Assembly (NCBI GenBank): GCA_963844575.1 | Contig: CAWJOU010000005.1 | Coordinates: 767,556 to 831,555, forward strand | Source: an uncultured Actinomycetota bacterium | Lineage (GTDB): Bacteria > Actinomycetota > Acidimicrobiia > Acidimicrobiales > RAAP-2 | Direction: 5' to 3' | DNA length: 64,000 nucleotides | In this document: positions 36,176-43,528 of the stretch, piece after piece | Layout of the letters: every line of letters starts with the position of its first letter | Position numbering within the stretch: the first letter of the stretch is position 1 | Notes under the pieces: model-generated | Seen by the model: only the letters and a program-made list of their open reading frames with translations | The model's database searches: none | Told to the model about the DNA's origin: nothing | Translations under genes and position numbers: made by a program

Positions 36176-36439
36176 TCAGTCCACCCGGAGCCGACTGCGG
36201 AGATCTTCCTGGCGGACCTCGAAATCGTCGATCGAGATACGCCCGTCGGCGAGATCCTCGTGGAGGCGGGCGAACTGCTCCAGCAGTGCTCCCTGGTCCT
36301 CCACCGGTCCGTCGTCAGGCTCCTCCGCGTCGGTCCGGTCCTCACGGCGAGCCGCCCGGTCCTCCTGCTTGGCCTTTGCCTTGGCTCGCTTCGCTTGATC
36401 GCGTTGGAGCTTCCCGAACGTCGAACGAGGCCTTGCCAT
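36176..36439 (-). CDS. small charged hypothetical protein (87 aa)
   Basis: ATG 36439. Lys/Arg-rich N-terminus and acidic C-terminus. Lies directly downstream of cspA. Confidence 0.4.
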   Translation of the reverse strand: MARPRSTFGKLQRDQAKRAKAKAKQEDRAARREDRTDAEEPDDGPVEDQGALLEQFARLHEDLADGRISIDDFEVRQEDLRSRLRVD

Positions 36440-36515
36440 ACACACCACTCTCCCTTCCCTTGGCCGCGCCGCCCGGTCGGGGGCGGCCGTCGGCCAGACG
36501 GTGACGGTGCGGGCG

Positions 36516-36716
36516 TCAGATGACCTTGACGTTCCGCGCCTCGTCTCCCTTGCGACCCGGGGCGATCTCGAACTCGACCTCCTGGCCGGCTTCCAGGGTC
36601 CGGAAACCGGAGCCCTGCACGTTGCTGTAGTGGACGAACACATCGTCCCCGTCGGGGCGTGAAACGAAGCCGTAGCCCTTCTCCGTGTTGAAGAACTTGA
36701 CGGTGCCGATCGGCAT
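36516..36716 (-). CDS. cspA: cold-shock protein
   Basis: Canonical CSD with RNP1 KGYGFV and RNP2 VFVHY; 66 aa. Confidence 0.95.
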
Positions 36717-36724
36717 GATTCCTC

Positions 36725-36776
36725 TTTTCTATTGCCTGTAAGTACTGCCGTTTTCTATTGCCTTCGGGTACTGCGG
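36725..36776 (-). repeat. 26-nt tandem duplication in the cspA leader
   Basis: Plus strand TTTTCTATTGCCTGTAAGTACTGCCG followed by TTTTCTATTGCCTTCGGGTACTGCGG. It starts 9 nt from the cspA start codon. Confidence 0.7.
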
Positions 36777-37215
36777 TTATTGGCGGCCGCAGGCGGGCCT
36801 GCGGTTGCTGCATCCTGGCGGCCCGCGTTCCGGCACCGAGCCGGGAGGCAGGTCGAGAGGTCTTGGACGAACGTCACCGACGGCAGCCCGGTACGGGCGC
36901 CGAGCTCGACCGCCGACCGGCGATAGGGCGGCCCCGTCGAGGACGCCGAGGGCGGCTGTCCGGGGCGGGCAGGCTGGTGCCCCGTCGAGCGGATCGGGCG
37001 ACCAGGCGGGCGGAAATGCCCAGGTCGGAGAGTGAAACCACTGAACTCCAGTCGAGTTGTCAACAGGCCAACCCGAACCGGAAATCGAATCAGGCCCACC
37101 GGCATGCTGCCGGTCGCCGCTCGATCTTGTCGACCGGCTAGCCCGACAGCGTAGCAGGTCGATTTTCCGAAGCTCCCTCGGCGCCGTCACGCACGCTCCC
37201 GGCTTCAGGGTTCTT

Positions 37216-37254
37216 CTGACCACCCGGTCGACGGATCGCCAACCGGGTGGTCAG
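37216..37254 (-). terminator. stem-loop downstream of recA (12-bp stem, 15-nt loop; no U tract)
   Basis: CTGACCACCCGG (37216..37227) pairs perfectly with CCGGGTGGTCAG (37243..37254). The structure lies 8 nt past the recA stop. Confidence 0.4.
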
Positions 37255-37261
37255 TGAGTGA

Positions 37262-40200
37262 TCAGTCGGACAGGCTGATCGGCTGGTCGTCCGGGTCGAG
37301 GGCACCCTCGATGCCGTCGACCCCCCCTTCGGGATCGGAAGGCGCCAGGTGCTGGCGCACCCGGTCGTCGATCTCGGCCATCAGCTGCGGGTTCTCCCGC
37401 AGGAACGCCTTGGCGTTCTCCCGGCCCTGGCCCAACTGCTCACCCTCGTAGGTGAACCAGGCGCCCGACTTCTTGATGAACCCGAGATCGACCGCCACGT
37501 CCAGCAGGGAGCCCTCCCGGCTGATCCCGGTCCCGTACATGATGTCGAACTCGGCTTGCTGGAACGGGCGGGCGCAATTCGAGACGACCACGTCATTGGC
37601 AACGAACGTGTGGTGCTCGGCCACCTCGATGTCGTAGATCGGTCGCCACTCGGCCGGGCTCACCGCCGTGATCCGGTCGTACCACAGGTCCTCCTCGAGA
37701 ACCTCCGCCAAGAACGAGCTCTCGAGTGCATCAGCCAGTGCCTGCACCCGGTCCCTGCGTAGGCGGCTCACCCCCAACACCTGGCGCATGCCGCCTTGCG
37801 GGTCACCTCCCAATGGCGCGATCAGTCGGGACGCCAGGGTGGCCGTCAGCCCTCGACGCTCCAGGTAGGCCAGGACCGGACCGGTCTGAGCGGCCGGGAG
37901 GTAACCCCTCTGGGAGCCCCGGTGACGAGCCAGCGCCGGATCGGCCAGGACCTCGGCCAGCTTCCTACCCCTCGGCCCCCATCCGGGGATCGACTTGGCG
38001 AACTGGGCCACGTTGTCGACGCCGGCGATCCGAACCTGGTAGCAGGGCAGTTTTCCCTGCACCCGCCGGCCTTTGATGATGCTAGGCCGTTGCTGCTTCG
38101 GTGTGTAGCGCCCGATGGAGCTTCCGATGCCGAAGCGCAGCAGCAGCCAGTGCAGCTGATGGGCGAGTTGCTCAGACGTGGTGACAAATCCGCAGCGGAC
38201 GCCGCCGGTCTGCTCCCGGCTTACCCAGCCGTCGGTTTCCCAAATCCCGAACAGGAGGTTGCTGATGACTTCGGCTGACACCTCCGGCTTGAAGAACGCC
38301 ACCGGGATGCGCTTTTCGGGAGCCGTGTGCCCCCAAATACCTGCCCACCGGGCCAGTTCGAGGAGCTCGTTCTTCTCGCCGGGTCGGTGTGAGTAGGAAA
38401 CTTCGATCCCCTTCACGTGGCTCTCGCAACCCAGCGTGGCCGCAATGGCGGCGGCGTCCTCGTGGAGGTCCGGCTGGACGTTGATGAACGAGATCGGCGT
38501 CTTCCCGGTCACGCCGCCGTCGCCGATCAGGTAGCCCAACATCCGGGCATGTGCCGGAGGGACCGGCTGCTCGTCGCCGAAACCCCCCGCCCGGCGCGGG
38601 CGGGCCAGGCGATCGCCGACGCCCAGCTCCCCCGCCTCCCGCCAGCCAGCGTCAGTGAGCACCCTGTGGTCCGCGGTGACCCACAGCTCCGTGCCGTCGC
38701 GCAGGTGCAGTCCGACGACCTCGTGCTCTCCTTGGTCCATCCGGGCCACGATCGGCCGGACATGCAGCTTGCCCGCCTTGTCGGCGGCCATCACGGCGAC
38801 CCCTTCGCCGCGTTCCACGACGTCCTCGATCCGGTGGGTGGTCCCAGTGACCGGGTCGAAGACCGTCGTCCCGGCCGCCACGCACTTGTTCTTGACCACC
38901 TTCACCCGGGTCCGATTGCCGATCATCTCGGCCCCGTCCTTGATGGTCTCGATCCGGCGGATGTCCAGCCGGACCGACGAGTAGAACTTCAGCGCCCGCC
39001 CGCCCGGGGTCGTCTCAGGAGAGTTGTGCACGACGACGCCGTCGACCAGGTAGTTGTGGCTGCCCTCCACCTCGATGTCGAACCGGTGGGAGTGCTTCGT
39101 CGACGGCTTCACGTGGACGTCGATGACCGGCAACGCCATCAGCTCGTAGCGCATCGGAGCGATGACCGGCTCTACGGCAAATCGGCCTCGGTAGGCCGGG
39201 AGGAGCTTGTAATCCATGCTCGGATGGACGAACGGCGCGATGAGCGCGTGCAACTTGGCCGTCTCGGCGTTGGTGAACGTCAGCACGGCCTTGCCGACCG
39301 CTCCGCTGGGAGCCAGCCTGCCGTGGATCCCCCACGTGTCGGCCAGGTAGGCCACCAGGCGGTCACGGGTGGCCGGCTCCATGGCTTCCACACAGATCTG
39401 TGCCCGTCCAGTCCCACCCTTGGTCCGCTTCTGCACTCCCTTGGAGCGGATGGTGAAGTTGGCGTCGTCCATGTACCAGAGGGCGATGGAGAGGGGGGTG
39501 AGGGCCTTCAGGTACTCATCGTCGAGCACCTTCTTGCCTTCGACGTAAACCGACCGTCGAAGCTCGGCCAACTCCGCTAGTGGCTGGAAGTCGTACTGGA
39601 CGACCCCGTCTTCCCGGACGTGACGGCTCGATTCGAGATTGCCGAAGAGCGAGGCCTTCCAGTCGGCATAAGCGACCTGCGCGGCGCCATGGCAGTAACG
39701 GAAGCGTGCACCGTGGCCACTCCGGGTGGGAGAGACCGCTCCGTCCCCCATCAGGGTGCCGTGGAGAGCCGCCCACTGGAATGCCGACAGATAGTGGGGG
39801 AGGGCCTGCATGACCCGGTCTCCGACTTTCAGGTCCCCCGCCTCCCGCCATCCGGCCGGGGTTCGGATCAGATGGTTGCTGGTGGCCGCGAACTGCGCCT
39901 TGCCGTTCCCCATGGGCTTCGCCACGGTGAATTGCAGGAACTCGTCCGTCCTGCCGTTGTCGAACCAGTTCACCACCCGCTTGGGAACGACCGCGCCGAC
40001 CGCCGGATCGTACGAGAGAACCTCGACCGGGAGCCGCTGGTTGACGATCTTCCCGATCTTCTCCGTCGACCCGTCGGCCAGCACCACTCGGGTGTTGTAG
40101 TGGAAGCAACCATAGAGAACTCCGATCTTCTCCCGGAGCTGGTTGATGAAGACGGCGATCGTGTCCGATTTGTTGAGCGTCCCGGTGAGCTTCCGTAGGG

Positions 40201-40717
40201 CCTGCGACATCAGCCGGGCCTGCAGCCCGACGTGGGTGTCACCCATCTCCCCGTCGATCTCCGCACGCGGCGTCAGCGCGGCCACCGAGTCGATGACGAT
40301 GATGTCCAGGGCGCCCGACCGGATCAGCATGTCCGCGATCTCCAGGGCCTGCTCCCCGGTGTCCGGTTGGGAGATCAGCAGGTCGTCCACGTTGACCCCG
40401 ATGGCCTTGGCGTACACCGGGTCCATGGCGTGCTCGGCATCGACGTACGCGCAGATGCCGCCGTTCCGCTGGGCTTCGGCGACGCAGTGCATGGCCAGCG
40501 TCGACTTCCCGGACGACTCCGGGCCGAAGATCTCGACGATCCGGCCCCGGGGGAGCCCACCGATGCCGAGGGCGAGATCCAGGGAGAGCGCTCCCGTGGG
40601 GATCGCCTCGATGCCCAGGTTGATGTTGTCGCCCATCCGCATGACCGAGCCCTTGCCGAACTGCTTCTCGATCTGCCCGAGGGCCACGTCCAGGGCCTTG
40701 TCTCGCTCCTCTGCCAT
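37262..40717 (-). CDS. recA: recombinase RecA precursor containing two inteins (exteins 203 + 46 + 104 = 353 aa)
   Basis: Exteins match RecA throughout ([23 protein letters not shown] / [21 protein letters not shown] / [15 protein letters not shown]). Two in-frame insertions show intein termini. SOS box upstream. Confidence 0.95.
37577..38884 (-). other. RecA intein 2 (436 aa, residues 612-1047), LAGLIDADG type, M. tuberculosis-type insertion site
   Basis: Starts [11 protein letters not shown], block B TADH, LAGLIDADG-like [11 protein letters not shown] and [11 protein letters not shown], ends DVVVSN with +1 Cys. Inserted between VKVVKNK and [10 protein letters not shown]. Confidence 0.9.
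39023..40108 (-). other. RecA intein 1 (362 aa, residues 204-565), LAGLIDADG homing-endonuclease type, M. leprae-type insertion site
   Basis: Starts [13 protein letters not shown], block B TSNH, LAGLIDADG-like [11 protein letters not shown] and [10 protein letters not shown], ends GVVVHN with +1 Ser. Inserted between GVLYG and SPETTPGG. Confidence 0.9.
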
Positions 40718-40834
40718 CTGGTCACTCTCCTCGTACGTCGATCGACGTGGTCTGGTCTGTGTTGTTGGCGCCGACTCTACGGGTGGGCTGTGTCAACGGG
40801 CCCTGGAAGGTCAACGGGTTCTGAACTCTACCGG

Positions 40835-40848
40835 CGAACGCATGTTCG
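40835..40848 (-). promoter_or_regulatory. LexA (SOS / Cheo-type) box upstream of recA
   Basis: Perfect palindrome CGAAC-GCAT-GTTCG, matching the Gram-positive/actinobacterial GAAC-N4-GTTC consensus. About 120 nt upstream of the recA ATG and abutting the thpR stop. Confidence 0.75.
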
Positions 40849-41388
40849 TCAAGGGATCCTCGGTCCTTCTCGTAACCGAATGGTCGCGCCGGCCAGGGTC
40901 TCGTACCGCGCACCGTGCGGATCGAGCTGCGACGACACCAGGCAGACCTCGCGGACCGGCCAGCGGCCGTCGACCGGGATGCCGCAGAGCGAGCCGGGCA
41001 CCCGCCGTCCCCGCCGGGCCCGGGCCAGGGTGAGATGTCCTCGGAACGGCGGTTCGCCGCCCCGGACGTACTGACCGATCGGCCACGCCCGCACCACTCT
41101 CGCCACTTCGTCCAACCCGACGACCGGCACGCAGAGGATGCCCGGCCCCAGCGCCGTCGTCGCCGGCCCGACGACCGCTTCCGGGCGGGACGGGAGCTGT
41201 TCGACCGCGCCGGCGAGGGCCCCCGCCGCCATCTCCTGCCCGCCGTCGGGGACCTCCCCCAGGAAGGCGATGGTGACGTGCCACTGGTCGGGCGTCGTCC
41301 ATCGCAGACCCGGGACGGCCGGTCGGGCCAGCGCGCGGAGCCGGTCCCGTACCTCGGCCGGCGGCCAGATCGCCACGAACAACCGCAC
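40849..41388 (-). CDS. thpR: RNA 2',3'-cyclic phosphodiesterase (2H phosphoesterase, LigT/ThpR)
   Basis: Two H-x-T-x motifs (HVTIAF, HLTLAR); 179 aa. GTG start 41388 inside track ORF 40849..41760. Confidence 0.75.
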   Translation of the reverse strand: MRLFVAIWPPAEVRDRLRALARPAVPGLRWTTPDQWHVTIAFLGEVPDGGQEMAAGALAGAVEQLPSRPEAVVGPATTALGPGILCVPVVGLDEVARVVRAWPIGQYVRGGEPPFRGHLTLARARRGRRVPGSLCGIPVDGRWPVREVCLVSSQLDPHGARYETLAGATIRLREGPRIP

Positions 41389-41492
41389 GCGACCAGTCTC
41401 CTCGCGCTCGCGTGGTCGCGGCCGCGACCCTCGGTGGCGTCGTGCGATCACCGCCGCCGCCGGGCCGGCGCGGCGCTGGCTGGACGCCGTCG

Positions 41493-41627
41493 GCGATCCG
41501 GTAGCCTTTGTCGACGCCGGACGCCGGTCCGGTCGCCTTCCCGGGGCCACGCTCCGCTGGCGGCCAGGAGGGGGCACGGAGTCGCTGGAGAGGTGCGAGA
41601 GCGGCCGAATCGGACTCACTGCTAATG
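41493..41627 (+). repeat. 135-bp direct repeat, left copy: tRNA-Ser upstream region plus the tRNA 5' half (41587..41627), truncated in the anticodon stem
   Basis: Matches 43738..43872 with 1 substitution and 2 compensating 1-nt indels. Identity ends at ...CTGCTAATG. Confidence 0.85.
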
Positions 41628-41820
41628 GGCCTAGATGCAGCGCCGCCTCACGGAGACGAATTCGGCGCACTTCCTGGTAATCCGTACCGTGGCTGCGTTC
41701 ATCGACACTGCCGTCAAGCCCGAGGCCTGGTACCAGCACTATCCCAACCAGGGATGACACACCGACGAACGAACGTCGTCGTCCCTTTCAATGATGGTTG
41801 AACGGAGGAGCGGGCCGTTG

Positions 41821-42762
41821 ATGCGTGACTACGTCGATGTCGACGTCAGTACGTGGAGCCTGATGCGTGTCGAGCCGATGGGCAGCAAGCCAGACAAGCT
41901 GTGGCTCCGCGGCTCCGACAGCCACGACGACAAACCAGTCAGTTGGCTCTTCAAGCCGCGGGGGATGCAGCGAGAGAAGAACCGACAGTTCCCGAGAGGT
42001 GAGGACTGGGCCGAGAAGATCGTCGCAGAGGTAGCAGCCGCACTCGCGATCCCCGCGGCAGGTGTTCAACTGGCGCACCGGGGCGACCAATTCGGGATCA
42101 TCTCTCGGAACGTCACGGAAGGACGGGCCCTCGTCCTCGGGAACGAGATTCTTTCGGGCGCCGACCCCGACTACGACCCCGACCGGCAGCGTAACGTTCC
42201 CGGTTACACCGTCGAAGCCGTGGTTTCGGCGCTGGAGGGGCTCGGAGCGACGGCACCGATCTCCTCTCAGGGGATTGATGCCGCGTCCATCTTCGCCGGC
42301 TATCTCGTCCTCGACGCACTTGTGGCCAACATGGACCGGCACCACGAGAACTGGGGAGTCCTCGTCGACCAGCGGGGACTGGCGCCGCCCTTGCTTGCAC
42401 CCACGTTCGACCACGCATCATCCCTCGGATTCCAGCTCTCCGATGAGGAGCGGACTGAGCGCCTCGACACCGCGGATGGGAACCGAATGCTCGACCGATA
42501 CGCTGAGCGCGGGCGCAGTCGCCACTTTGCTGGCTCGCCGGGTCTCGTCAACTTGGCTCTGGACGCCCTCGACCGGTTCTGCACCGGAAGCTGCCGAGAC
42601 GGCTACCTGGGGCGGTTGGAGGCCCTCAATGACCAGACCTTGTCGTCCGTCGTGGACGCCGTCCCCGATGGCCGGATGTCACTACCTGCACGTAGGTTCT
42701 GCGCAAGACTGATGGGGATCAACCGAAGGAGGTTGCTCGATGGCGTCAAACGAAGTCGCTGA
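41821..42762 (+). CDS. HipA-like Ser/Thr kinase, short form (core kinase only; HipT-like)
   Basis: Catalytic-loop motif LVANMDRHHENWG, FDHASS (Mg-binding Asp region), and a Gly-rich loop MGSKPDK. GGAGGAG lies 10 nt upstream of ATG 41821 (track ORF starts at 41791). Confidence 0.7.
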   Translation: MRDYVDVDVSTWSLMRVEPMGSKPDKLWLRGSDSHDDKPVSWLFKPRGMQREKNRQFPRGEDWAEKIVAEVAAALAIPAAGVQLAHRGDQFGIISRNVTEGRALVLGNEILSGADPDYDPDRQRNVPGYTVEAVVSALEGLGATAPISSQGIDAASIFAGYLVLDALVANMDRHHENWGVLVDQRGLAPPLLAPTFDHASSLGFQLSDEERTERLDTADGNRMLDRYAERGRSRHFAGSPGLVNLALDALDRFCTGSCRDGYLGRLEALNDQTLSSVVDAVPDGRMSLPARRFCARLMGINRRRLLDGVKRSR

Positions 42763-43528
42763 TCGCCACGAGAGCACGTTCGCGGACCTCCCGGATGCCC
42801 GGCTCTACGTCGCGTGGCAGGACCCGGACTCCCGAGCGGTGGAGCCCGTCGGCCGGCTCGATCGCGTCCATGACGGCACGGCGGCCGGCTACGAGTTCCG
42901 GTACCTCCAGCGCGTGAAGGCACTGCCGGATTTCCAGCCCTTCGTCAGCTTCCCCGACCCTCATCGTGTCTACCGATCGTCGGCGTTGTTTCCGATTTTC
43001 GAGAACCGGCTCATGCCGCGATCGCGGGCCGACTACGAGCAGTTCACTCGATCCGTGGGGCTCGGACTGGACGCCGACCCCTTCGAGGTGTTGGCCAGGA
43101 CCGAGGGCCGTCGGGAGACTGACACGATCGAGATGTTCCCCGAACCGATCGTCGACGACGGATTGGTCCGGTGTCATCTCCTCGTCCACGGTATCCGGTA
43201 CATGGCGGGGGCCGATGACGCGATCGAGCAGCTCTCGCCCGGTCAACAGCTGATGGTCATGTCCGACTTGCAGAACCCGGTCGACTCGTGCGCAGTTCTG
43301 GTGCGGGACGACACCTTCCATCTGATCGGGTGGATCCCCCGCTACCTCACCGCGCTGGTGCGTGATCCTCTTGCCCAGCTTGGTCCCGGCGCCGTACAGG
43401 TCACCGTCGAGCACGTAGGTGAACGCAGCGGACCGGTCCACCTGCGACTCCTCTGTGCCCTACAAGCACAGTGGCCGCACGACGAGGAGCTCCCTTTCAG
43501 CGGTCCGGAGTTTGCACCGGTCGCATAG
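42740..43528 (+). CDS. HipS-like (HipA N-terminal subdomain) / HIRAN-like fusion protein, putative cognate antitoxin
   Basis: N-terminal part resembles the HipA N-subdomain (ALFPIFENRLMPRSRADYEQF...DPFEVLARTEGRRETDTIEMFPE). C-terminal part resembles HIRAN (VHGIRYMAG...PGQQLMVMSDLQNPVDSCAVLVRDD..LIGWIPRYL). AAGGAGG lies 7 nt upstream; the ORF overlaps the kinase gene by 23 nt. Confidence 0.55.
   Translation: MASNEVADRHESTFADLPDARLYVAWQDPDSRAVEPVGRLDRVHDGTAAGYEFRYLQRVKALPDFQPFVSFPDPHRVYRSSALFPIFENRLMPRSRADYEQFTRSVGLGLDADPFEVLARTEGRRETDTIEMFPEPIVDDGLVRCHLLVHGIRYMAGADDAIEQLSPGQQLMVMSDLQNPVDSCAVLVRDDTFHLIGWIPRYLTALVRDPLAQLGPGAVQVTVEHVGERSGPVHLRLLCALQAQWPHDEELPFSGPEFAPVA

Follow-up and report, generated by a model that had tools for sequence, protein, structure and literature searches.

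According to a table of RecA inteins published in 2015 (PMC4513877, Table 1), the intein of M. leprae (residues 206–570) occupies site b and the intein of M. tuberculosis (residues 252–691) occupies site a, which is filled there only in the M. tuberculosis complex. The sequence-only reading of the DNA analysed here stated that, in the mycobacterial recA alleles described, only one of the two inteins is present at a time, and the table agrees with this. A RecA with two inteins is also listed: Thermobifida fusca YX has one intein at site b (650–1006) and one at site c2 (96–517). The combination of sites a and b is absent from the table, and no explicit description of it was found in the literature searched. 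In haloarchaeal MCM, relatives differ in whether the allele is empty, single, or double, and it has been suggested that the double alleles arose mostly by invasion of singly occupied ones (PMC10643990).

The window, a stretch of 64,000 nucleotides from an Acidimicrobiia-like host, contains a recA gene with inteins at sites a and b (Table 1). Like T. fusca RecA, its product is actinobacterial, would need two splicing events, and has one intein at site b; however, the second intein of T. fusca is located in the P-loop (c2), whereas that of the window is at site a. The presence of two close inteins in one replication or repair ATPase is shared with DnaB of M. smegmatis (PMC6195587) and with haloarchaeal MCM, and the coexistence of empty, single, and double alleles is shared with the latter (PMC10643990). 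Both systems differ from the window in the host protein, and for this RecA homing is a prediction from sequence.

Gene structure and RecA identity

The recA gene is a single unbroken reading frame of 3456 nt in the ORF listing, with GGAG located about 10 nt 5′ of the ATG. The ORF, the lengths of the exteins and inteins, and all the coordinates proposed by the sequence-only reading were reproduced to the base. After conceptual splicing, the exteins (203 + 46 + 104 aa) give a RecA of 353 aa, in which Walker A, the L2 loop, and the C-terminal domain follow in order, as is characteristic of bacterial RecA. The N-extein has GPESSGKS as its Walker A motif, which shows that no intein occupies site c in the P-loop.

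The precursor matches the Pfam models RecA (PF00154, E = 2.5e-127) and RecA_C (PF21096, E = 5e-25), TIGR02012 (521 bits vs. a cutoff of 325), and NCBIfam NF007072, "intein-containing recombinase RecA" (1122 bits vs. a cutoff of 1024); the NCBIfam models intein_Nterm and intein_Cterm match it twice each. The spliced sequence of 353 aa aligns without gaps to intein-free RecA proteins (1ubc, 1g18, and E. coli; E ~1e-159), and in the comparisons with M. smegmatis, M. tuberculosis, and E. coli the gap-free alignment spans both junctions. The double-intein recA is a known kind of gene, the correct annotation of which is "intein-containing recombinase RecA" with two intein features; the length of the precursor should not be read as a sign of a fusion or of misassembly. 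The reading of the ORF as an assembly chimera or a decaying pseudogene is effectively refuted and has a negligible probability. Nothing specific speaks for it, beyond the broken recA frames of some related long-read metagenome bins. On the other side, the frame is intact throughout, an identical protein is deposited in NCBI/ENA on a 3.67-Mb contig, a 97.6% identical double-intein allele is found in an independent record on another contig (P0121), and the same architecture is common to at least 95 homologous clusters.

Table 1. Features of the recA locus in the window.
Feature	Position	Strand	Remarks
recA precursor ORF, 1151 aa	37262..40717	(-)	stop codon included; ATG start
N-extein, aa 1–203	40109..40717	(-)	RecA ATPase core to L2 loop
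Intein 1, RecA site b, aa 204–565, 362 aa	39023..40108	(-)	LAGLIDADG_2-type endonuclease
Middle extein, aa 566–611, 46 aa	38885..39022	(-)	SPETTPGG...VKVVKNK
Intein 2, RecA site a, aa 612–1047, 436 aa	37577..38884	(-)	PI-MtuI homologue
C-extein, aa 1048–1151, 104 aa	37262..37576	(-)	RecA C-terminal domain and stop codon
Sigma-70-like promoter	40825..40852	(-)	TTGACG-16-TAGAGT
LexA/SOS-box-like palindrome	40836..40847		GAAC-N4-GTTC; enclosed by promoter

The GAAC-N4-GTTC box is conserved 5′ of recA in most related loci, and the recA promoter is probably under LexA control. A scan of the whole window with Rfam gave no match.

Insertion sites, splicing residues, and endonuclease domains

The numbering of the sites is based on the gap-free alignment of query residues 3–327 to residues 5–329 of 1g18, where G203 corresponds to M. 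tuberculosis residue 205 and K249 to residue 251. The junctions of intein 1 are REKIGVLYG/CFHYNTR...VVVHN/SPETTPGG, and those of intein 2 are VKVVKNK/CVAAGT...VVVSN/, followed by the +1 Cys. By alignment, they coincide with conserved extein positions, without gaps relative to E. coli and M. tuberculosis RecA, and in the InBase/Topilina 2015 nomenclature intein 1 is at site b and intein 2 is at site a. The M. leprae site proposed earlier for intein 1 and the M. tuberculosis site proposed for intein 2 are confirmed both by the alignment offsets and by the published coordinates (PMC4513877, Table 1). Site b lies within the L2 DNA-binding loop (between G204 and N205 of E. coli), and site a adjoins the trans-acting ATPase lysines (between K250 and I251 of E. 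coli).

PI-MleI of M. leprae and other actinobacterial site-b inteins are inserted at the same point as intein 1, after the Gly equivalent to residue 205 and before the +1 Ser of SPETT; for PI-MleI, the identity of the site follows from the alignment offsets and the published coordinates (b, 206–570; PMC4513877, Table 1). These inteins are 363–367 aa in length, compared to 362 aa for intein 1, and share with it Cys1, the His-Asn end, and an endonuclease of the LAGLIDADG_2 type. PI-MtuI of M. tuberculosis shares the insertion point of intein 2, after the Lys equivalent to K251, and the +1 Cys. Residues 1–110 of intein 2 align to construct residues 1–110 of the PI-MtuI structures (E = 2e-45), the T70/H73 numbering and the block F Asp/His are the same, and the lengths are close (440 aa in PI-MtuI and 436 aa in intein 2). 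Both endonucleases belong to the LAGLIDADG_3 type, and both have an acidic residue at position 122. Unlike PI-MtuI, intein 2 has Ser instead of His at the penultimate position, belongs to an Acidimicrobiia-like host and not to the M. tuberculosis complex, and shares its gene with a site-b intein.

Intein 1 has C1, T76-x-x-H79, the block F residues D344/H351, the H361-N362 end, and the +1 Ser, and C1, T76/H79, D344, H351, H361-N362, and the +1 Ser are all invariant among 86 double-intein homologues. It matches the Pfam models LAGLIDADG_2 and Hint/PT-HINT, as well as TIGR01445 and TIGR01443, and judging by these residues and matches is a class-1 intein with the Hint fold. In intein 2, C1, T70-x-x-H73, D418/H425 of block F, S435-N436, and the +1 Cys were identified, and C1, T70/H73, D418, H425, N436, and the +1 Cys are invariant in the 86 homologues. 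The Pfam models Intein_splicing (PF14890, E = 2.5e-18) and LAGLIDADG_3 match it, and from the sequence its homology to class-1 inteins is certain. Compared over 122 aa of the Hint domain, the inteins are only 32% identical, so they are not duplicates of each other. Thus, the motifs named in the sequence-only reading (Cys1, T-x-x-H, LAGLIDADG, and the terminal Asn followed by Ser or Cys) are present, and intein and LAGLIDADG models match both inteins, but the Ser-Asn end of intein 2 in place of His-Asn was overlooked.

The penultimate His normally assists Asn cyclisation in inteins. Without it, the C-terminal step of intein 2 could be slow or conditional, and RecA might be throttled or gated post-translationally, for example, by redox conditions or metals acting on Cys1 and the +1 Cys. 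In addition to S435 itself, the enrichment of inteins in ATPase functional sites, for which a regulatory role has been proposed (PMC4760082), is in line with such a reading. We consider it quite improbable. The penultimate residue is His in 62 of the 86 homologues and Ser in 18; in all, 24 of the 86 site-a inteins have a residue other than His (S, Q, A, or R), whereas the other catalytic residues are invariant, which argues for sustained selection for splicing. Inteins able to splice without the penultimate His were reportedly described by Chen, Benner and Perler in 2000. Moreover, the intein-free alleles of the closest relatives argue that the host needs no intein. His424 was considered as a residue compensating for the lost His and rejected: it accompanies a non-His residue at position 435 in 15 of 24 cases and His435 in 3 of 62. 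However, the non-His group forms a clade, and some ten further columns separate the two groups just as well.

The acidic residues of the LAGLIDADG motifs are D122 and D214/D215 in intein 1, where PF03161 is matched over its full length (profile positions 2–168 of 168), and D122 and D218 in intein 2, where PF14528 is matched. These residues are conserved at 92–100% in the 86 homologues, and all of them are kept in both inteins of the window. By these characteristics, each intein carries a two-motif LAGLIDADG endonuclease domain, and both endonucleases are probably active.

We regard it as highly probable that this recA contains two full-length class-1 inteins that are independent of each other and each enclose a LAGLIDADG endonuclease, and that both are spliced out to give active RecA and persist by homing. 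The gene would be transcribed from the SOS-box promoter and translated as a precursor of 1151 aa. In each intein, splicing would begin with an N-S acyl shift at Cys1. The acceptor in the transesterification that follows would be the +1 Ser for intein 1 and the +1 Cys for intein 2. The terminal Asn would then cyclise, and a final acyl shift would create the peptide bond between the exteins; the predicted products are RecA of 353 aa and two free endonucleases. The conservation of the residues and the intact frame of a conserved DNA-repair gene suggest that both inteins are spliced. The precursor is presumed inactive, and RecA would remain so until both splicing events are complete. The inteins would persist as selfish elements by homing, a gene conversion set off by their endonucleases that carries them into empty recA alleles.

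Distribution of the two-intein architecture

The earlier suggestion that double occupancy looks uncommon is contradicted by public genomes. Of the 120 best database clusters at 90% identity, at least 95 have both inteins at identical junctions, and among the matches listed the same is true of at least 14 of 80 GTDB species-representative loci; such alleles are common, which is the observation named beforehand as speaking against rarity. Hosts of the double-intein RecA include Acidimicrobiia, Pseudonocardia, Nocardioidaceae, Streptosporangiaceae, and Haloechinothrix alba, and the RefSeq protein WP_343601315.1 of Mycobacterium sp. also carries both inteins. Some relatives contain a third intein in the P-loop, and in some the site-a inteins are shortened to 366–376 aa. 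The a + b architecture of RecA is widespread in Actinomycetota. Double occupancy in itself teaches little, given this wide distribution, the existence of versions with three inteins, and the publication of a two-intein RecA in 2015. Site-a RecA inteins, for which the 2015 table lists no host outside the M. tuberculosis complex, occur broadly in actinobacteria from the environment.

Empty and single alleles and probable gain by homing

The nearest relatives have intein-free recA genes with 95–98% extein identity in the same gene neighbourhood, and the flanks of these alleles have about 94% nucleotide identity to the window. Relative to them, the window recA has two clean insertions, between extein nucleotides 609 and 610 and between nucleotides 747 and 748. 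In the empty allele L082, the sequence is GGCGTGCTCTACGGG/TCGCCCGAGACGACC at site b and GTGGTCAAGAACAAG/GTCTCCCGACCGTTC at site a. When the empty allele's nucleotide differences from the window are counted, 11 of 39 fall within 20 nt of a junction, where 2.9 are expected (P = 6.6e-5). In residues 12–330, the protein P0123 differs from that of the window only by V250C and S251A, which are positions +1 and +2 of site a; the closest empty alleles have Val at site-a +1. A relative with the site-a intein only has the post-junction sequence TGCGCCCGCCC in common with the window, and its intein is 91% identical at the protein level. The L085 comparison was register-shifted, which makes its genome-wide difference counts meaningless, and the visually aligned junction sequences alone were used. 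An extein-only protein search listed 120 matches, all intein-free, yet they did not include the window's own protein, whose extein identity is 100%, indicating that ranking or candidate selection disfavours split alignments; this search was used for the existence of empty alleles alone, not for their frequency.

These comparisons are consistent with a fairly recent gain of the inteins in this lineage by homing, with co-conversion limited to short tracts. The search for a donor allele gave none: in 16 intein-bearing loci, the junction flanks resemble the window no more than they resemble the empty allele, so we infer co-conversion from the junction clustering alone. The GC3 of the inteins (0.86 and 0.84) is slightly below that of the exteins (0.93) and within the host range; composition therefore gives no independent sign of recent import and does not help in dating. 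Among the 86 homologues, inteins diverge in step with their exteins (r about 0.65), a pattern that either long vertical residence or homing between relatives would produce. The divergence of one intein is also correlated with that of the other (r = 0.75).

Both inteins may also splice while one or both endonucleases are dead, the inteins being vertical passengers or co-homing hitch-hikers rather than actively mobile elements. Both correlations speak for such passengers, and the shortened site-a inteins of relatives indicate that endonuclease decay occurs in the family. Additionally, when both inteins were compared with 50,697 phage records by tblastn, identity did not exceed 29%, which is no evidence of phage carriage, and no other vector with close copies was found. 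Nevertheless, we consider dead endonucleases rather unlikely: the window inteins are full length with all catalytic acidic residues kept, and close relatives have alleles of three kinds (empty, a-only, and double), which, together with the junction-clustered substitutions, is what recent homing predicts.

A more tentative idea is that an intein invasion is ongoing in a natural Acidimicrobiia population, where empty, a-only, and a + b alleles coexist at about 94–98% relatedness with short co-conversion scars at both junctions. We regard this as possible, although less than probable. Val at site-a +1 cannot serve as a splicing nucleophile, and successful invasion of such alleles would require co-conversion of the flanking Cys codon along with the intein. 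If the idea is correct, this recA would allow sequential homing to be tested against co-homing of neighbouring inteins in a bacterium, and likewise the resistance of host alleles to invasion, questions so far studied only in haloarchaeal MCM. The occurrence of empty, single, and double alleles at short distance, with substitutions clustered at the junctions, could support a population-level study of homing in bacteria.

Anatomy of the recA precursor and its insertion sites

The window recA has GGAG about 10 nt upstream of its ATG, and the ORF, extein and intein lengths and coordinates proposed by the sequence-only reading were all reproduced by locating the junction peptides. Pfam assigned RecA (E = 2.5e-127) and RecA_C to the precursor, LAGLIDADG_2 with Hint/PT-HINT to intein 1, and Intein_splicing with LAGLIDADG_3 to intein 2. 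The NCBIfam equivalog NF007072 'intein-containing recombinase RecA' scored 1122 bits (cutoff 1024), and the NCBIfam intein N-terminal and C-terminal splicing models gave two matches apiece in the precursor. The double-intein feature is real and its anatomy was described correctly. An assembly artefact or a pseudogene is excluded by the intact reading frame, a 97.6% identical double allele on an independent contig (P0121) and the many homologues of the same architecture. The identical 1151-aa protein is also present in NCBI/ENA (P0001).

Features of the recA locus in the window
Feature	Position	Strand	Remarks
recA precursor ORF	37262..40717	minus	uninterrupted, 1151 aa, ATG start
Exteins	aa 1-203, 566-611, 1048-1151	minus	353 aa joined; junction peptides located
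Intein 1	39023..40108 (aa 204-565)	minus	362 aa; junction peptides located
Intein 2	37577..38884 (aa 612-1047)	minus	436 aa; junction peptides located
Sigma-70-like promoter TTGACG-16-TAGAGT	40852..40825	minus	only one found by scan of 36400..41000
SOS-box-like palindrome GAAC-N4-GTTC	40836..40847	minus	enclosed by promoter
Second element TTGACA-N11-TAGAGT	40774..40796	minus	50 nt downstream of first promoter
Cold-shock-domain protein gene	36516..36716	minus	66 aa; follows recA, as in L081-L084
Spacer, recA to cold-shock gene	36717..37261		545 nt, lower GC
LigT-like 2H-phosphoesterase ORF	40849..41760	minus	immediately upstream of recA
HIRAN-domain ORF	42740..43528	plus	further upstream of recA

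No gaps arise when the spliced 353-aa protein is aligned to the RecA of M. smegmatis, which naturally lacks inteins (query 2-326, chain 5-329), to the mature protein of M. tuberculosis (3-327, 5-329) or to E. coli RecA. The alignments pass straight across both junctions; therefore, G203 and K249 of the window correspond to M. tuberculosis residues 205 and 251. As Table 1 of PMC4513877 (Topilina et al. 2015) lists the M. leprae intein as 'b (206-570)' and that of M. tuberculosis as 'a (252-691)', inteins 1 and 2 of the window are at sites b and a, respectively, which agrees with the sites originally proposed for them. Residues 1-110 of intein 2 also align from residue 1 of crystal constructs of PI-MtuI, the M. 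tuberculosis RecA intein (2imz, E = 2e-45). In E. coli numbering, according to the alignment offsets, site b lies between G204 and N205 and site a between K250 and I251. The former falls inside the L2 DNA-binding loop, and the latter adjoins K248 and K250, which act in trans in ATP hydrolysis. Since the inserts break this loop and the region beside the trans-acting lysines, the precursor and half-spliced RecA should be inactive. The two inteins share just 32% identity over 122 aa of the Hint domain, their endonuclease domains are unrelated in sequence, and by this comparison they are independent elements.

Catalytic residues, predicted splicing and expression

Residue conservation was scored on aligned exteins and inteins of 86 double-intein homologues. 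C1, T76-x-x-H79, D344, H351, H361-N362 and the +1 Ser of intein 1 are invariant, as are C1, T70-x-x-H73, D418, H425, N436 and the +1 Cys of intein 2. Conservation of the LAGLIDADG acidic residues is 92-100%, and the window copy keeps every one of them (D122 and D214/D215 in intein 1; D122 and D218 in intein 2). The sole deviation from the catalytic set is the penultimate residue of intein 2, which ends in Ser435-Asn and not His-Asn (37577..37582). Among the homologues, this residue is His in 62 of 86, Ser in 18, Gln in four and Ala in two; the non-His group is essentially an Acidimicrobiia-like clade that includes the window. It is possible that Ser435 makes the splicing of intein 2 impaired or conditional; however, non-His variants persist in 24 of the 86 homologues, in which the remaining catalytic residues never vary, and the closest relatives do without any intein. 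Block F of intein 2 contains a His424-His425 doublet (37610..37615), and His424 occurs in 15/24 homologues with a non-His penultimate residue versus 3/62 with His. This association was not taken as compensation, as many other columns split alike and it is confounded with clade membership.

The best-supported account of the window recA is standard intein splicing and homing. The gene would be transcribed from the TTGACG-16-TAGAGT promoter and translated into the precursor, from which each intein would be removed by class-1 splicing: N-S shift at Cys1, transesterification to the +1 Ser or Cys, Asn cyclisation and the final acyl shift. The freed inteins are predicted LAGLIDADG endonucleases that, if active, would cut empty (intein-free) recA alleles, leading to gene conversion.

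The GAAC-N4-GTTC palindrome enclosed by the promoter is one of three in the window, against 0.78 expected. LexA/SOS control of recA is likely because most of the related loci that could be evaluated have a similar box upstream of the gene. The second element presumably resembles the mycobacterial LexA-independent (RecA-NDp/PafBC-type) recA promoter. No recX is adjacent to recA in the window locus, and an Rfam search revealed no RNA families in the 545-nt spacer. The long ORF calls in this GC-rich region extend too far; orthologues of the LigT-like protein have 169-172 aa, which places its probable true start well downstream of that in the 303-aa call.

Distribution of RecA intein combinations

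A search with the full precursor covered 5.8 billion proteins, and the best 120 clusters were examined. Nearly all are RecA of about 1130-1210 aa with the same Pfam set and 59-74% identity. Both junctions (G/C...HN/SPE and KNK/C...N/C) were parsed in at least 95 of these 120 clusters, a lower bound, as the regular expressions miss some variants. Their sources include Acidimicrobiales, Acidimicrobiia, Nitriliruptorales, Nocardioidaceae, Streptosporangiaceae and Haloechinothrix alba, as well as the RefSeq 'intein-containing recombinase RecA [Mycobacterium sp.]' (WP_343601315.1, 1157 aa). GTDB species representatives were also searched with a query spanning the junctions, which gave 448 matching stretches; of the 80 loci listed, 48 are occupied at site b alone, at least 12 at b and a, and two at c, b and a. 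The view of the sequence-only reading that double occupancy is uncommon is thereby refuted, by the criterion which that reading had set: the arrangement is of a known kind, common in sequence databases and abundant in Actinomycetota, and RefSeq already annotates it. That reading's statement that the described mycobacterial alleles carry one intein or the other was fair: PMC4513877 contains no a+b case and places site a in the M. tuberculosis complex only, and no explicit description of an a+b RecA was found in the literature searched. The two-intein RecA of Thermobifida fusca combines b with c2 (PMC4513877), whereas the window recA combines b with a.

Eight clusters (P0041, P0063, P0068, P0077, P0079, P0090, P0106, P0109) contain three-intein RecA of 1494-1642 aa. 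The third intein (359-442 aa) is located exactly in the Walker-A P-loop (GPESSGK/C...SHN/T), which is site c2 of PMC4513877, and the b and a inteins are present too. The P-loop of the window (GPESSGKS) is empty. Three-intein RecA was also observed at loci L015 (Pseudonocardia sp. MAG) and L017. Locus L003 (QHBU01000209.1), a short contig of 4200 bp in a bin assigned to Candidatus Aeolococcus gillhamiae (phylum Dormibacterota), has a double-intein recA that is Acidimicrobiales-like, with 74% identity over the junction segment; mis-binning or cross-phylum transfer is likely. Among 50,697 phage records searched with both inteins, no close relative was found; the UvsX-like (RecA-family) recombinase of Erwinia phage pEa_SNUABM_17 (202928..203977, H3/H4) has an intein with 25% identity to intein 1 along the full length.

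Empty and single-intein alleles in the nearest relatives

A search with the spliced exteins revealed 353-aa intein-free RecA at 95-98% identity (P0123-P0128), although this search is unfit for occupancy frequencies, the window's own protein being absent from its top 120. The loci of these intein-free proteins (L081-L084) share the window gene neighbourhood (CinA, PgsA, MiaB-like, LigT, recA, cold-shock protein, 87-aa ORF, metallo-beta-lactamase-fold protein), with flanks about 94% identical in nucleotides. Against the empty alleles, BLAST showed two clean insertions in the window, between extein nt 609 and 610 and between nt 747 and 748. In P0053/L085, a relative with the a intein only, this intein shows 91% identity in protein and 87% in DNA, and the post-junction sequence is TGCGCCCGCCC, as in the window; the empty allele has GTCTCCCGACC there. 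Therefore, empty, a-only and double alleles coexist at short distance. P0046 and P0112 have the b intein plus a partial or shortened a intein. In RecA P0122 (449 aa, ENA, 2155-bp contig), a segment of about 95 aa is duplicated internally, which probably reflects misassembly of this short contig.

The window extein differs from P0123 in six amino acids in all; the only two differences within residues 12-330, V250C and S251A, are at positions +1 and +2 of site a. Extein DNA differences are concentrated within 20 nt of the junctions (11/39 versus 2.9 expected, hypergeometric P = 6.6e-5), also when only third codon positions are counted (P = 0.0014). Six neighbouring synonymous positions at site b carry A/T in the window where the empty allele has G/C. 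Of 119 intein-free near relatives (P0123-P0241), 96 have Cys and 23 have Val at the site-a +1 position, and the Val group includes the very closest relatives (KNK-VS-RPF); the window has Cys1048 (37574..37576). A Cys in an empty allele may remain from an earlier intein at the site, and a Val there would not permit splicing unless co-conversion replaced the flank. The junction clustering and the coexistence of empty, a-only and double alleles fit intein gain by homing with short co-conversion tracts; no donor allele was identified among 16 intein-bearing loci compared at their junction flanks.

One caveat to this reading is that the GC3 of the inteins (0.86 and 0.84) is just slightly below that of the extein (0.93). 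Across the wider family, intein divergence follows extein divergence (r about 0.65), a correlation that long vertical residence, with transfer from time to time, would explain as well. Possibly, the inteins splice while their endonucleases are dead or hitch-hiking, as this vertical signal and the shortened a inteins of relatives suggest; against this stand the catalytic residues, which are intact and conserved, and the local presence/absence polymorphism. The polymorphism of empty, single and double alleles with junction-clustered substitutions offers a possible natural system for homing of neighbouring inteins in bacteria, for which the haloarchaeal MCM (PMC10643990) is a comparison system.
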